A DNA stretch of 64,000 nt from a plasmid. Location: sequence record NZ_CP145916.1; one strand, written 5' to 3'. Within the stretch, counting starts at the first letter, position 1. Every line of letters begins with the position of its first letter. The position numbers were made by a program. Positions 36,001-63,000 of this stretch are shown one piece after another.

Positions 36001-39000
36001 AATCCGTGGCGTTATGGTTTTAGCCCAGCAAGCCAAAATGGTTGGAAACAGAACTCCTGAGTTGAAAGCCATACCGAAAAGCCACGTTGTATACATCCCT
36101 AATGCTGAATCATGGCGACAGGATTCCCTTCTGCAAGTAATCCTCCAGTCATCACAAGCTGGATGCAAAGCTATGATTGGATTCAGCACCCCTTCAAAAC
36201 TCTCTCTGGGCATCTATCAGTTTTTGGTAACTAAGCAAATTACCGACGGTATTGTTACCGATTGGGCTATCAACATGGATATGCCGATTTGTGATATCCA
36301 GTAAGCAATAATTTCGCTTACCCCTCTTCTCGATCTCCATAAAGCCTTGCAACTAGCAAGGCTTTTTTATGCCTTTGAATCTTGAAAAAGTGAGCCTTCA
36401 GGCGACCTCGGGCTAACAGGCATTAACTCTGTTGGGGGGTATTGGGAGATCGGAACACATGGTTTTGGAAGATGAGGCAGATAGGTACGTATTGAAAATG
36501 GCAGTGGCATATATTTGCGGGCGCGTATAGCTAAAGCGATGAGAAATGCTGCGCTTGAAACGAAGACTAAAGCGATGTTTTTGCCTTCGTTTTTGCGATT
36601 TGGAATAGAGCGACTTTGTTAAAATGAAGCAGCATTAGTGATTTTGAAGACAAGAGTTTATTGCGCATTTCTTTCTTAGAGGCATGAGCGTGGGGCGTGT
36701 CATCCAGTGACTTAGTGATCATAGAGAGATGCGGGGAGGTAATCCCTCAAATGTTTATGGTTATTTTTTTTTGTTTATTGTTTTATGGTTTTGATCGCAA
36801 TTCACATTGATGTTTTATATTTAAGTGTTTTGGGGGGTTTGCGCTTCACCGGGGGTTGTATTTAGTGTTTCCGAAGCCCCGCCGCAAGAGCGGGGATTCG
36901 CTTGTTTCTATGTGTTTTTCAGCCCGCCGAAAGAGCGGGCTTTTTTTTTGTTGTTGAATTATACGCTTGTTTTTCCTGCTAAATGTTTTGCCTTGATGTG
37001 TTTGCAGAGGTGAAAGGTATGCGTTAAATTGTTGCGTGGTTGTTTTAATCACGAAGGTTTGGCTTGAAATAGGAAGGCGAGCCTAAAACGCAGGGGGTTT
37101 AACTTGGAATGAAAACAATTACAAAGAGCGTCCGAATCCCTGATGATTTGGTCATTAGGCTGGATGCGGAAGCTTTATCGACTGGGCGCACGCGGAATGC
37201 AGAGCTTGTGGCTTTGCTTGAAGAGTCGATAATCGATATGAAGTATACGCCGGGGTACTCACTGACAGATCCTCTGGTAATGTCACAGGATGAGGCCATT
37301 ACGATATCAGGGGGGGGAGCCTATCAGATCCGAATACCTCGTGCGCTGGAACGAGCAATAGCGAATGATGTACCGGAAGTTGTCGAGTGCTCAGTAGAAG
37401 GCAAGCGTAAGTTAGAGACTTTCAGTGAGAAAATCCGTTATCTGATAATGCTTGGTCTTTCCACGCGTGGAACGGTAATCCGTGTTGAGTTGGAGACGAT
37501 TCGAGATGGTGTGTATCACGACAAGGAAATTGACGGGAAGTTTAACGATTTGAAATTGGTTAGTTCGGAAGAGTTGAGCCAAATGTTTTTGTTGGCGAAA
37601 CTGTTTAAAGAGCAAATGGTTAATACAGATGGTCATGTACTGGTTTATGGGATGCCGGGAACGGGAAAGAGTTTCTGTACAGGATATTTGAAGGCAATAA
37701 CTCCAGGGGAATGTCATTTTATAAAGCTAATGCCTCATGGGCATTTAAAAGGTTCTGGGCGTAGAGTTATCTTGTTTTGGTCTAATGAATATCCACACAA
37801 AAAAAAGAAGACACTTATTTTGGATGATGGGCATTGCTTGGATAATGAATACCTACTCATATTTCTAAAAAAATCAATAAAGAAGAATGTCCGTGTAATT
37901 ATAACAGCACAAGACGAACATCAATTCGATGAAAACGTTTTGCAGTCTATCGATATGAAAATGGATTTTAACTGGAACGCTGCGGGTGAAAGCAAGTGGC
38001 TTTCGAGTGTGTTGTAGTGTGCATGTGAGTAATAATTAAGCGTCAAGCTATTCGACCCCCTTGGAGTGCGTGGGATAATTTATCTTATTATCAAGAGCAG
38101 CCGGGGGGGTTATGTTGAAGCAGAAAGATGGTTTGAGATTAATTGATGTAGTGATGCGGAACTATGAGCCGGGCAATGCTTTTCTTCATGCTCAGCAACT
38201 GAGAAACAGGTACGGTCGCAATGTTAAAATCACATATAGCATCAAGAACAAGGTTCCTATTTTCAATTTCCGACTGACGCTTGTCAAAAAAGAGGCGGTG
38301 CCATGCCAGCCTACTTAATCCCCTCTCTTATCGCCTCGCTTTTCATAATGGTTTTTGCAGTTAGAGTTCTTCGGTTGTTGAGGGGGGCTCTGCTTGGTTG
38401 GTTTTGCCTGAAGTGGTTTGGTGAAAACTATGCAGGGGTGTTCATTGTTTCAGGGCTGGAACGACGTGATCTTGATATACTGCATGGGCGAGTCTTAGCG
38501 GCAGCTGGTGGGGCTATCGGTGATTCGGTATTCGTGCTGAATCCAGACTTTTTTACTGTTGTGGGTGTAAAGATGTTACTCGTAGAAAATCGTGTTTATT
38601 TACTATCAGGTCGTACCGGGGGGGTACTATGAATGATGGAATGTTTGGGTTGCCAATCAAGGCACCGGGGGCGCTGTACTGGTTCAATATCTCGTTTCTG
38701 TTTTTGGTCGTGACCTCGTTCATGGCGCTTGAGTCTGGGAGCTTTGCAATTACGTTTGTCCTTATCGCGCTGGTGGTTATGACCGTTCTGGGTATGCGGT
38801 ATCCATTGGTGAGTGCTCAGGGCGTCATCAGGACACCAAAGGGATTTCTCGTATACTCCCTATTCATTCTGATCATGTGTGATACTCAAACGTATGTCTT
38901 TGAAAAGCCAATTTCGTTCTCTGGGGTAATGAGTGTCGTTCTTACTGGCATCGTGTCTTTTAGTCTTGGCCGTTCGATTGTGATCGGTCGATTGGGTATC

Positions 39001-60000: not shown

Positions 60001-63000
60001 AAGAAGATAGTTAACCTGTCTGATTTTGGAAACCTTCTAAACCCGGTTAATCCGGGTTTTTTTATCTCTAATTATCCTGTAATGACTTTTCGTTTAAGTT
60101 ACTGATTTTAGTGATTAACAAGGCTAGATTTCATCTTGAAATCCTGTAAATCTCTTTCGAATTTCATCTCTCAAAATCTTCGACCCCTATGGTGCTCATG
60201 GGATAATTTTTATCGCATAACACCTTGTAATCATATCGAGGCTAATCGTAATAGCTCGCAGCATCCACACTGGAGGAAATCACTATGTCTTCTAATAGCA
60301 CGGCAACCCTCACCTTCACTTTTGACGGTAACGCTCCCTCAGCATGGATAAGCGCTCTGTCACGGCCTAACCCGTCCGATTCATGGATTGACCCAGAATC
60401 GCCGGGCAGCGTGGTACTGAGAGAGATTATGACCCATTCCTCTGTCGATACCGATGTGGCCGGGAAAACCAAAACACTTACTGCCAACATCCCTGAGCAA
60501 GCAGATGTACTGTCTGCGCTGCTCGAGGTGTATGTTTCCGCTGATGTGAAAATACTGCTAATGGCAGGGTGTGAGAAGGTGGATAATCTGATCTGCGTCA
60601 CGAGCAAAACAACGCGTCTCATGCCTAACGGCTTTGTTATCAGCTGTGAGCAAAAGGCAGAACGCCTCATGTACTTCATGACGCAAAACGGTATCTGTGT
60701 GCTGGCTGATCCAACCATTAATCTGTCAGCTGAAAAGCTGCCCGGCGCAACCTTCTTTGCCAGTGAGCAAGAGATGGACTCGGAGGGGTTAGCCCGCTGG
60801 GGGGAGAACGGCGGGGAAGGGTGGCGAACCCATGCCACCATTCAGAACGGCAGACCTGTCCTGCTGAACGGCTTCGGTAATATGATTGAACTGGGCGATG
60901 AACCCGAAGTAACGATTAACTCTCTCAGCAATTGAGCCTGAGCCTATGAAGAATTTTTCATTTAAAGCATATTGGCGTGGTTTTCTGCTGGTGGGGTTAA
61001 GCGCGGGAGGCTGCGCCCTTTTCTTTCATGAGCTGACCATCTACCTTTCAGGATTGCAAAAGCCCTTTCCGCTTGAGTTGGCCTTTTCTGGATCGCTCAT
61101 GCTGGCGCTGATAATGGAACTTCGCCACGGCATTAACCGGCTCGTGTTCGTTCAGGCCACGGTAACAATTATCATTTTTGTTACTGCTGTGTACCTTGCC
61201 GAACACCTGCGCTTTTTTTACATGGTTACTGTTAACGCCCTGAAAGCGGAGCCACTGGCAAAAGAGGTAATAGGGGAGGAATACTACTCTGTTATCACTA
61301 ACGCGGCGGTAGGGTACGGCGGATGCTTTGCAATCTCCATTACTCTCGTTCGTCTGTGCCTATGGGGGATTTTGAGAAAAATACTTTTAAGGGTATTAAC
61401 TGAGGAAGGACAAAGCAAGATATGCCCGTGCTGTGGGTCTGTCATGAAAACCTTCTGACTACATTCCTACAGCACCAAAAATAAGCCCGCCCAATGCGGT
61501 TTTTTTTTATAAAACTATTTTGCTTTTGACTATTCGACCGCCCTTACCTCCGTGGGAAAATAACTACATCAGCAAGACTGATACAAACAATCAATGACAG
61601 CCAGAGCTAAACGCAACCGCTGTCCTAAATGAAAAATCAGGAGATCACTATGTACGGTACAGTTAAAGAAATCATCGCTCATCTTTCTCAATACAAAAAT
61701 CAAGATGAACAGATTGGTACAATTATCTGGCATTCCGATGATGTCAAAGCTGCTGTACAAGATTTTAACAATGAAGAGATTAGTGATGAAATTGCTCGTG
61801 ATGCCCTGAAACATGCGATCAGCTCACATGATGCTAACTATGGTATCACTCATGAAACGCTGGTATGTGCCGCTGAATTCGTTATTGAAGAACGAAAAAA
61901 GGCATAGACTCCCTATCCTAAAGATACCCAAACAAGACCGCTTAATCGGCGGTTTTTCTTTAACTCTTAACTGTATATTTTTTAACCGATATCCTATTCG
62001 ACCCCTTTCCGTGCGGTGTTAGCCTTTTAATCATTACTACACGTTAAGAGGGTTCATTCATGCACGAAAATAGCTTTCTCGATGTCAATACACTCGTCAT
62101 TACCCGGCACGCTCAGGAACGATGGAAAGAGCGTGGTTTCCGTGGCACCTATGGATTACTGGAAGAATTATCAAAGGCGCAGCTCTTCACCGAAGAGGTG
62201 AGGGGGGTGGATATTATCCTCACTGAGTTTATGCGCGTCACGTCAATGTATTATGAGTGCAAAGAAGAGAGAAAATATTTCTTCACTAATTGGTTTATAT
62301 TTGTTGTATGTCAATCAACGCTGATCACCTGCATATCCCGAAATTCTCATGTGAAATACAGGAAGAAACTCGCTAAAAGCACCAACAAAAAGAGGGTGAA
62401 CAACCAGTACGCACACCGCTAAAACTGTCGGGGAATGGAATGGCATCAAGATTATCTAAATGGTTTTTCTGGAGCTACTGGCTAACACTGATAGTCATGG
62501 TGTTCATCGCAGTTATAGGTAGTCAGGCCGTCACTCGTAGTGATGATTTACGTGTCTACCTCATGGCCTCTCGGGTCGCCCCTTACAATACCAACTGGGT
62601 ATCTGTGATACGGGACAGGGAAAAGCCGGATACCACGGCATTACTGGTTAACGTGCCCGGAACGAACGATAAGGCGCATATGCGCTACATAGAGTACATG
62701 ACAGCTGATTTAGCAGGTATGGGTAGGGAAGATCTAAAGCGCCTCATACAGAGCGATACAGGGGCTTCTGTGGCTAATGAACCTGTTTATGGGAAACTGG
62801 TAGATGTTGACCCTAAAATGGCAAAATTGCTTTTTTATGATACGAAAAGCGACATGTTGTTGCTGGGTCTGACGCTGTTCTCTCTGCCGGAAGTTATTTT
62901 TCTCATTGTCACAACCGCTGTTAGCCTGCTGCGATTCGTTGTAAAGGGCAGAGGGCGTCAGGCGCTGGTGGTTTTCACCTACTGGACAAAGATATCGTAT

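Follow-up and report, generated by a model that had tools for sequence, protein, structure and literature searches.

A recurrent predicted TTCG-box promoter with an extended -10 element in the backbone of the IncT plasmid Rts1

The window analysed here is a stretch of 64,000 nucleotides from plasmid NZ_CP145916.1, an IncT plasmid of the Rts1 family (typed as MOBH / MPF_F). It carries many copies of one promoter-like element, called the box promoter below, in which a short TTCG box stands at a fixed distance from an extended -10 element. The box units, at least 16 in the window and about 26 in Rts1, would together form one regulon. The explanation that we favour is a clade-specific regulon of the non-tra backbone, read by a single plasmid-encoded factor that is most likely a repressor, and we give it a probability of roughly 40%.

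A first-pass annotation of the window had listed nine copies within an island of small genes at 38-62 kb. Every one of these is present, and the coordinates are exact save for the copy placed at 61534, which belongs at 61533. The pattern proposed at that time, CTATTCGACCCCCTT, matches the window seven times when up to three mismatches are allowed, compared to an expected 1.06, and seven or more matches occurred in none of 100 shuffled sequences. The shorter pattern TTCGAC-N17-GATAAT, with at most one mismatch, matches eight times against 0.27 expected, a number not reached in any shuffle. A repeat finder recovered the family independently (families D1, D9, D10, D13 and D16). A fixed-length position weight matrix (PWM) of 60 columns made from five seeds was overfitted and recovered the seeds alone. 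It was replaced by a 38-column model built from 24 Rts1 sites, with which the window was scanned allowing spacers of 16-18 bp at a cut-off of at least 10 bits. The scan gave 16 sites, against a mean of 1.3 in 30 Markov shuffles. The plus strand has fourteen of them, all between 38 and 62 kb, and the remaining pair, at 27.6 and 34.85 kb, is on the minus strand; no PWM site was found in the first 27 kb of the window. The additions to the original nine are two strong copies (47113 and 53543), three weak ones (42090, 49291 and 57009) and the minus-strand pair (27606 and 34853). All are listed in Table 1.

The element begins with an A/T tract, followed by the box, (G)CTATTCG(A/G)CC(CC), 13 unconserved positions and the block (c)GTGr(G/T)AtAAT, the shared unit being about 32-38 bp long. 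The box proper has 7-11 bp and lies 16-17 bp from the -10, and most copies are situated behind an A/T tract or the T-tail of a preceding terminator. Across the Rts1 sites the information peaks over CTATTCGACC (1.0-2.1 bits per column) and over GTG..A...T, with 0-0.2 bits per column in the spacer. Because the spacer is not conserved, the shared part consists of two blocks and is not a pasted cassette. The TG of an extended -10 is in register in all 16 window sites and in the large majority of the Rts1 sites, and the -10 hexamers include GATAAT, TAAAAT, GATTAT, TAGCGT and TAGCnT. A sub-variant ending in TGTTAGCnTTTTAATCATT, noticed earlier at 42637 and 61997, was confirmed as repeat family D10, and is kept at the orthologous promoter in Cronobacter.

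A consensus promoter scanner reads the copies as TCGACC / 16 bp / GATAAT with the TG present (9 of 12), so that the earlier description of plausible sigma70 promoters is upheld at the level of predicted, promoter-like sequence. The match of the box to TTGACA is 2/6 when it is read as TTCGAC with a 17-bp spacer, 4/6 when read as TCGACC with a 16-bp spacer, and 3/6 for the TCGGCC found in the Klebsiella plasmid pKP-2683-1-174.8 (pKP below). At what would be position -34 an invariant C stands in place of the T that sigma70 prefers, and a CTA is kept upstream of the hexamer. Canonical TTGACA-type promoter-like sites are under-represented between 34 and 54 kb (16 versus 29.9 expected). On inspection the box showed no dyad symmetry of the KorA/KorB operator type, GCTATTCGACC having no inverted partner in the conserved block.

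Measured from the end of the -10 to the next start codon on the same strand, the leader is 33-78 nt long in 13 of the 14 plus-strand copies, a count that relies on an unannotated open reading frame (ORF) of 68 aa at 38112-38318 and on a corrected start at 52108. For the weak copy at 42090 the distance to candidate start codons is only about 14-35 nt. Leaders are longer on the minus strand, at about 165 nt for 27606 and about 330-390 nt for 34853. The distance of 30-80 bp to the gene start that the first-pass annotation gave for each copy is thus appropriate for the 13, when taken from the -10 end, and does not apply to 42090 or to the minus-strand copies. The 68-aa ORF is 54-63% identical in three relatives and has a coding-type substitution pattern in a relative; another unannotated ORF behind a box promoter, of 172 aa (49353-49871), has a 41% identical match in pKP. 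Several copies sit behind an intrinsic terminator or its T-tail, and the units are therefore composed of terminator, promoter and gene or genes.

The element extends far beyond the island, to which it had at first been confined. In the complete Rts1 sequence (217 kb, assembled from five stretches) the PWM at fixed spacing finds 26 sites compared to about one in shuffles, and a pattern search adds two or three copies with a 16-bp spacer. Clusters are located at 70.9-75, 88-100 and 111-113 kb and in the island (191-215 kb), and single sites at 3.4, 123.3, 127.9, 141.0, 181.07 and 188.3 kb. In our reading of the annotation tables, nearly all of them are followed closely by a gene start on the same strand. 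Among the genes served are dinG, a DUF4942 methylase-like gene, a TelA-like operon, an eex-like gene and the parM-orf249-slt-setDC operon. The box almost never occurs in Rts1 without a correctly spaced -10.

The window can be placed on Rts1 with some precision. Rts1 (NC_003905.1) and several Providencia rettgeri plasmids match bases 38000-50000 from end to end at 100% identity, with no phage match in the same comparison, and bases 1-25000 are identical in p18014577_Rst. Between 33 and 64 kb, window coordinates are those of Rts1 minus about 153,462, save for a 30-bp indel near 43 kb. The first 27 kb consist of tra and recombination genes. The origin of transfer (oriT) of Rts1 has been mapped experimentally to the gap between orf251 and orf252 (mobI) (PMC10838148). 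Its equivalent in the window is at about 34.5-35.3 kb, between the parM-like gene and mobI, and inverted repeats of the oriT type can be seen there. To the left, on the minus strand, are the parM-like gene, orf249, slt, setD and setC; to the right, on the plus strand, are mobI and then the small-gene island.

Conservation of the element was examined in relatives of increasing distance. The backbone of pKP is about 70% identical to that of Rts1, and pKP has the box at the orthologous parM, 38051, 42637, 47113 and 54805 promoters. In pairwise alignments of the orthologous intergenic regions the flanks have diverged, and the box and -10 block between them stand out as conserved. The conservation beyond the hexamers that the first-pass annotation had pointed out is therefore real and under selection. 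Over the whole 175 kb of pKP, a plasmid outside the model building, the Rts1 matrix finds 18 sites versus about 0.9 expected, mostly CTATTCGGCC, the box itself being mostly TTCGGCC. The box is likewise present in two contigs of the same synteny, one from Cronobacter and one from Logan, including the TGTTAGCGTTTTAATCAT sub-variant at the orthologous gene. Since the positions are orthologous in plasmids that are about 70% identical, the copies are old and were not recently pasted in. Together with the shortness of the shared unit and its free spacer, this leaves the earlier suggestion that the copies were acquired repeatedly as cassettes unsupported.

A more distant MOBH relative, pPROV175-PER (NZ_CP120534.1, positions 165000-214999), has a SetC that is 47% identical, and its protein at the orf249 position is not detectable by BLAST. 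Its box is TTCGTCAGC, with nine exact copies in 50 kb against about 0.4 expected; the same sequence occurs five times in the 217 kb of Rts1 and four times in the 175 kb of pKP. The pPROV175-PER copies are situated 13-14 nt upstream of a (T)GATACT-type -10, including those of the parM, eex-like and dinG promoters. The eex-like locus of the window is a 63-aa ORF (27222-27413, minus strand) between traG and traN, where relatives have their entry-exclusion (eex) genes; the annotation of pKP shows a gene there as well, and the orthologous promoter in pPROV175 has that lineage's own box. A concerted, lineage-specific change of this kind under the same host sigma factor argues for a trans-acting factor rather than for sigma70 alone. 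An IncC plasmid lacked the box throughout its first 50 kb, the mobI-proximal region included, and the strict box pattern gave four matches among 185,579 reference genomes, in unrelated contigs of which none belongs to Enterobacterales. These comparisons of sequence suggest that the box is specific to the plasmid clade.

The box is missing upstream of the tra operons, which have a common motif of another kind there, AAAACGTCCyGTTTTT / TTTTGTCCCCTTT, which is found in the window at 7486 (minus), 20937 (plus) and 27507 (plus). This motif is similar to the AcaCD sites described in IncC and SGI1, and is probably the SetCD box of Rts1. We infer that the TTCG box defines a second, non-tra regulon. 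SetCD/AcaCD was rejected as the factor reading the box, as the AcaCD-like motif sits at the tra promoters and the box has no GCCC..GGGC-type repeat.

In the mechanism that we propose, the box promoter would be the standard non-tra promoter of the Rts1 (IncT) clade, a double-stranded promoter of the sigma70 type with an extended -10, and the box would be bound by one DNA-binding factor that the plasmid encodes. Co-regulation by a shared factor, which the first-pass annotation had raised, is the best reading of the enrichment, the conservation and the lineage-specific boxes. An extended -10 can fire without a good -35, and a box promoter drives the orf249 operon; the factor would therefore most likely be a repressor that occludes the -35. 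A repressor is more likely than an activator, a direction favoured also by the increase in conjugation of about 400-fold upon deletion of orf249, a gene in a box-driven operon with setDC, and by the scarcity of TTGACA-type sites at 34-54 kb. Upon arrival in a repressor-free cell the units would give a burst of expression, which would then be throttled by negative feedback, as with ArdK/CUP, KorA/KorB and omega.

Several observations weigh against such a regulon. The sites were found by pattern, and their information content is inflated by this selection. The copies are predicted promoters, the literature searched for IncT RNA data holding none. The box, one asymmetric site whose distance from the -10 is fixed, has the layout of a core promoter element or of a class II activator site, and is unlike most operators. 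The A-to-G shift in the pKP box is not uniform, the orthologue of Rts1 127875 shifting in the opposite way. None of the candidate factors could be linked to the box. Finally, the box resembles the units of an 11-bp array next to the parM-like gene (Table 1), and this likeness fails in pPROV175, whose array units read ATTTAGCC / ATTTACGGC and whose box reads TTCGTCAGC. The box sequence is undescribed in the literature searched, where primers alone matched and to which the original Rts1 genome paper did not belong.

The strongest rival, possible though somewhat unlikely, dispenses with a dedicated factor. The copies would be ordinary strong, constitutive sigma70 promoters with an extended -10, related by old duplication or convergence, and the extra conservation would reflect contacts with RNA polymerase or the tuning of promoter strength. 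The scanner reading agrees with this, the fixed spacing is what a core element would have, always-on genes (eex-like, partition) are in the set, and no regulator can be assigned. However, the C at -34 is invariant although sigma70 prefers T, the CTA is kept upstream of the hexamer, pKP mostly has a box with a 3/6 match, and the concerted switch of the orthologous promoters of pPROV175 to another box is hard to account for with an identical host sigma factor.

An unlikely alternative is a class II activator site, at which a plasmid protein bound at about -41 to -31 would replace the recognition of the -35 by sigma region 4 and so switch the regulon on. The strict spacing of 16-17 bp, the single asymmetric site, the non-consensus -35 and the lineage-specific boxes are all consistent with it, and the weak -10 of the sub-variant (TAGCGT / TAGCCT) may need help. 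Most copies, however, combine the TG with a 5/6 match in the -10 hexamer and should fire unaided. The known regulators of Rts1 are SetCD and orf249 only, and the SetCD-type motif is at the tra promoters and not at the box promoters.

A more far-reaching form of these ideas, which we regard as rather improbable, is that the clade has a promoter code of its own. A specificity factor would replace -35 recognition, recruit or block RNA polymerase at every non-tra backbone operon, and co-evolve with its sites, which read TTCGACC in Rts1, TTCGGCC in the Klebsiella family and TTCGTCAGC in pPROV175. If so, plasmid expression would be insulated from the host and from related co-resident plasmids, by a MotA-like or KorA-like system having no sequence relative among known regulators.

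A special case of the favoured regulon names Orf249 as the common factor, binding both the 11-bp array and the single boxes, so that a centromere adaptor would double as a global repressor. Orf249 is a published negative regulator, and its deletion raises Rts1 conjugation about 400-fold (PMC10838148). It is encoded in a box-driven operon and its homologues were found only in box-carrying plasmids. Its N-terminal 47 residues are near-invariant in an alignment of 16 homologues. In the AlphaFold2 model residues 1-40, with a predicted local distance difference test (pLDDT) score of 85-94, form an extended segment and two helices (beta-alpha-alpha), and the remainder is a long disordered linker ending in a conserved RKRRILG tail. 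Orf249 thus looks, in the model, like a ParR-type adaptor with a ribbon-helix-helix (RHH)-like fold; Pfam, PDB sequences and Foldseek gave no match, and the RHH assignment rests on the secondary-structure pattern. The array unit shares the core ATTCGA with the box, and one unit reads GCTATTCGAAA. The box and array of pPROV175 are nevertheless unrelated in sequence, which makes Orf249 a weak candidate for the box. RHH proteins, moreover, normally need at least two adjacent subsites. The rise in conjugation can be explained by derepression of the operon ending in setDC, for which binding to the array would suffice equally well. We therefore consider a role of Orf249 at the boxes doubtful to the point of being distinctly improbable.

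The locus of orf249 has a meaning of its own. The parM-like gene product contains an ALP_N domain (Pfam), and an actin-like gene, a small adaptor gene downstream of it and an 11-bp array upstream are all present at 32817-34856. By this arrangement the array looks like a parC-like centromere or operator, and the whole looks like a complete ParMRC-type (type II) partition locus. Rts1 had been stated to be without a ParR (PMC4489591); from its modelled N-terminus, Orf249 is probably that ParR. The phenotype of the orf249 deletion was published as 'SetR-like' (PMC10838148). At about 57630-57720, upstream of the parA/parB operon, units TGACATTCAAATGACA are repeated that are the reverse complement of the parM-leader units; this sequence likeness suggests that one protein touches both partition loci.

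Three further proteins are candidates for the factor. The RHH+AAA protein of 302 aa (Table 1) is the second candidate after Orf249; it has 11 homologue clusters, all in this plasmid clade, and its gene is just upstream of the 38048 promoter. The gene following mobI (35816-36304) is conserved and clade-restricted. An 87-aa winged-helix-like protein (Rts1 71892-72155) is encoded in a box-driven operon, is just below threshold for Pfam HTH_45 and is 62% identical in pKP.

The weakest alternative, very improbable in our view, takes the copies for promoters active in single-stranded DNA or for mobile promoter cassettes acquired one by one with their genes. Frpo / ssi promoters of F-like leading regions likewise lie near oriT, upstream of small co-oriented genes (PMC11541004), and the units here are bounded by terminators. 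Frpo, however, needs a long hairpin that rebuilds the -35 and -10, and 11 copies folded as single strands gave no hairpin with these elements in its stem, contrary to the Frpo-like activity suggested earlier. Nine have fold z-scores of +0.07 to -2.1, like shuffles; the two outliers, at about -3 and -3.6, have a separate, unrelated GATTTCAnnnTGAAATC hairpin upstream of the box. Similarity confined to about 32 bp with a free spacer, and orthologous copies across diverged plasmids, speak against cassettes. An Rfam scan of the whole window matched no family.

A hairpin element does exist in the region, and it is an 85-nt repeat (93% identical copies at 45068-45150 and 63625-63707), not the promoter box. 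As single-stranded DNA it forms a near-perfect 20-bp stem (z-scores -3.7 and -3.2). The copy adjoining the replication iterons is 83% conserved just upstream of repA in the Klebsiella relative, and the repeat may be a single-strand initiation or primosome site. The iterons are at least four tandem repeats with a 21-bp period (GGTGTGTGCTGAGGGGAAAAA) at 63840-63952, before a repA gene that starts past the window end; they are probably the replication iterons of Rts1.

The box was also compared by eye with the consensus sequences of other familiar elements. The sigma28, sigma32, sigma54 and RpoE consensus, the CII-type TTGC-N6-TTGC repeat, LexA and CRP sites and the DnaA box were rejected in this way. 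A TCGA methylation site was ruled out by the pKP box, TTCGGCC.

The content of the island lends little to the idea of an anti-defence region that the first-pass annotation had advanced. The Pfam scan covered about 44 island proteins; HigBA and ParAB, identified from the deposited annotation, and four other proteins were outside it. MobI, PsiA (55653-56375) and a helix-turn-helix (HTH) protein of the ParB type (47195-48262) alone were above threshold, a weak AAA match (37109-38017) and a DnaJ zinc finger (46125-46439) were below it, and about 40 proteins had no Pfam family. Models of ArdA, ArdB/KlcA, PsiB and ArdC had no match among these proteins, by a Pfam search that did not extend to remote or structural homologues. 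The earlier gene labels hold as descriptions of sequence and not of an anti-defence function, with an HExxH protein at 50803, CxxC pairs, acidic proteins (isoelectric point 4.1 for those at 43643 and 48364) and many membrane proteins.

The island had also been likened to a leading region. It does adjoin oriT, and yet two heuristics would place it last. According to Samuel et al. the relaxosome genes adjacent to oriT mark the lagging side (PMC11541004). Since mobI is on the island side, the island would enter last. In the F plasmid the leading genes point towards oriT and the entering strand is the template, whereas the genes of the island are directed away from it. The two heuristics speak against 'leading', though neither amounts to a test. 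If the island did enter first, second-strand synthesis would be needed before transcription, which would fit ordinary double-stranded promoters.

The closest known systems, by analogy, are CUP/ArdK (IncN), KorA/KorB (IncP) and omega (inc18). According to PMC6289460, which cites Delver & Belogurov 1997, the CUP elements of the IncN plasmids pKM101/R46 are repeated upstream of many small genes near oriT; they overlap promoters, and the plasmid regulator ArdK also controls its own gene. The likeness to the box promoter, a repeated conserved element overlapping the promoters of several genes, is a functional analogy only. The repressor of CUP is ArdK, whereas for the Rts1 box there are candidates; the Rts1 box moreover extends over the whole backbone, beyond the oriT area, and has a shared unit of about 32 bp. 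Among the Pfam-scanned island proteins there is no HTH regulator besides the ParB-HTH protein, no query with ArdK itself having been made.

KorA/KorB of the IncP plasmids RK2/RP4 act at short operators in fixed positions of many backbone promoters, and coordinate replication, partition and establishment apart from host control. A partition protein doubles as a regulator there, and the operators are dimer-bound palindromes. The fixed-position sites in many backbone promoters are the basis of the analogy; the Rts1 box differs in being asymmetric, with no dyad. The RHH protein omega (inc18 plasmid pSM19035) and ArdK/StbA (IncW plasmid R388) combine a centromere adaptor with a repressor of several promoters, so that expression overshoots on entry and is curbed by negative feedback. 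The binding sites of omega and StbA are arrays of short repeats, whereas the Rts1 promoters have one box each and the array at 34626-34812 is a separate element.

The FlhDC-family activators AcaCD/SetCD (IncC, SXT/R391) are similar in belonging to like conjugation machinery, with the gene order traG - setCD - parM-like - oriT - mobI, and in using a plasmid-specific motif at many promoters. The AcaCD site differs in being a GCCC-N-GGGC-type inverted repeat at tra promoters that have no extended -10, the TTCG box of Rts1 being non-tra. In the middle promoters of phage T4 a sigma70 -10 is combined, at fixed spacing, with an asymmetric MotA box in place of the -35, read by an element-encoded factor; the PhoB pho box is a further class II activator site replacing the -35. 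The Rts1 box has a different sequence and is centred near -36 rather than -30, and this too is an analogy only. No MotA or AsiA homologue was found.

Table 1. Box promoters and associated features of the window. Bits are PWM scan scores (38-column model); L-numbers denote sequences from relatives, L017 being pPROV175-PER.
Feature	Coordinates	Strand	Sequence	Bits	Context and conservation
Box promoter	27578..27609	-	CTATTCGAGG-N13-TGcGACTAT	24.0	faces 63-aa ORF 27222-27413 (-)
Box promoter	34825..34856	-	GCTATTCGACC-N13-TGaGATCAT	33.4	parM-like/orf249/slt/setD/setC operon; pKP: box and -10 kept, flanks diverged; variants in L012, L013, L017
Box promoter	38048..38079	+	closest to consensus	41.2	drives 68-aa ORF 38112-38318 and 38303-39081; orthologues in pKP, L012, L013
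Weak variant	42087..42118	+	TCTTCGAGG..TGcTATCTTaatcat	10.8	upstream of 42132/42153-42521
Box promoter	42634..42665	+	TAGCGT sub-variant TGTTAGCGTTTTAATCATT	25.4	family D10; upstream of 42721-43611; orthologues in pKP (L007 position 20932) and L012 position 1492
Box promoter	46560..46590	+	16-bp spacer	22.9	upstream of 46629-46919
Box promoter	47110..47141	+	-10 TGgTTTACT	33.2	new; upstream of ParB-HTH gene 47195-48262; near-complete conservation in pKP
Weak variant	49288..49319	+	GACTTCGGCC..TGtTTTAAT	11.1	upstream of unannotated ORF 49353-49871
Box promoter	52041..52072	+	TTCGGCC, TGtTAGCCT	10.8	upstream of gene starting 52108
Box promoter	53540..53571	+	TGcCATAAT	24.1	new; upstream of 53610-54269
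Box promoter	54300..54331	+		31.5	upstream of 54367-54792
Box promoter	54802..54833	+		38.6	drives 54867-56375 operon, last gene psiA; orthologue in pKP
Weak variant	57006..57036	+	TTCGGC, 16-bp spacer, TGaTAAAAT	12.0	upstream of 57107-57430
Box promoter	60176..60207	+		29.2	upstream of 60285-61458; terminator 60039-60059 before promoter
Box promoter	61530..61561	+		34.8	family D5; upstream of 61629-61907; terminator-like hairpin and T-run at ~61486-61510 before promoter
Box promoter	61994..62025	+	TAGCCT sub-variant	31.0	family D10; upstream of 62060-63096
orf249	32817..33398	-			published negative regulator of Rts1 conjugation; candidate common factor
Array	34626..34812	+	~15 units sTCATTCrAAn, 11-bp period		repeat families D7 and D14; between 34856-34825 promoter and parM-like gene
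RHH+AAA protein	37109..38017	+	RHH-like N-terminus SVRIPDDLVIRLD...RTRNAELVALL; AAA_22-like P-loop domain		302 aa; candidate factor

Some individual sites have features of their own. A 28-nt repeat (93% identical) at 51993-52020 and 60127-60154, about 25 bp upstream of the box promoters 52041 and 60176, contains the inverted repeat GATTTCAnnnTGAAATC and may act as a local operator. In the 38048 promoter the -10 region (38074-38092) reads GATAATTTATCTTATTATC, which by eye agrees with the 19-bp Fur box consensus at 13/19 positions, and at 15/19 in the orthologue from Klebsiella; this unit may be under iron control. In two units the ribosome-binding site is an unusual G-run (GGGGGGG) that complements the C-run (CCCCCTT) behind the box. 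The pairs are 38057-38063 with 38104-38110 and 52050-52054 with 52088-52098; they are paired in the single-stranded DNA folds and may be a coincidence. In pKP, positions 13860-18834 hold Cas6, DEAD-box helicase and RAMP genes, a plasmid-type CRISPR-associated module, and this plasmid further has an H-NS-family gene and a PerC-family gene, neither of which was noticed in the Rts1 annotation.

Resistance genes, NDM among them, are carried in Providencia, Proteus and Klebsiella by IncT plasmids and their MOBH relatives. To our knowledge, the regulation of these plasmids is known for the conjugation genes only, through SetCD and one negative regulator. One short box at about 26 promoters would give a handle on the expression of the remaining backbone. 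The set that it marks comprises partition, entry exclusion, DNA metabolism, the conjugation-activator operon and dozens of proteins without a family. The identity of the factor would reveal how this plasmid family coordinates establishment with transfer, and would delimit a testable regulon of small proteins without known roles. In the lineage-specific boxes, nature would have run an experiment on how a regulator and its sites evolve together.

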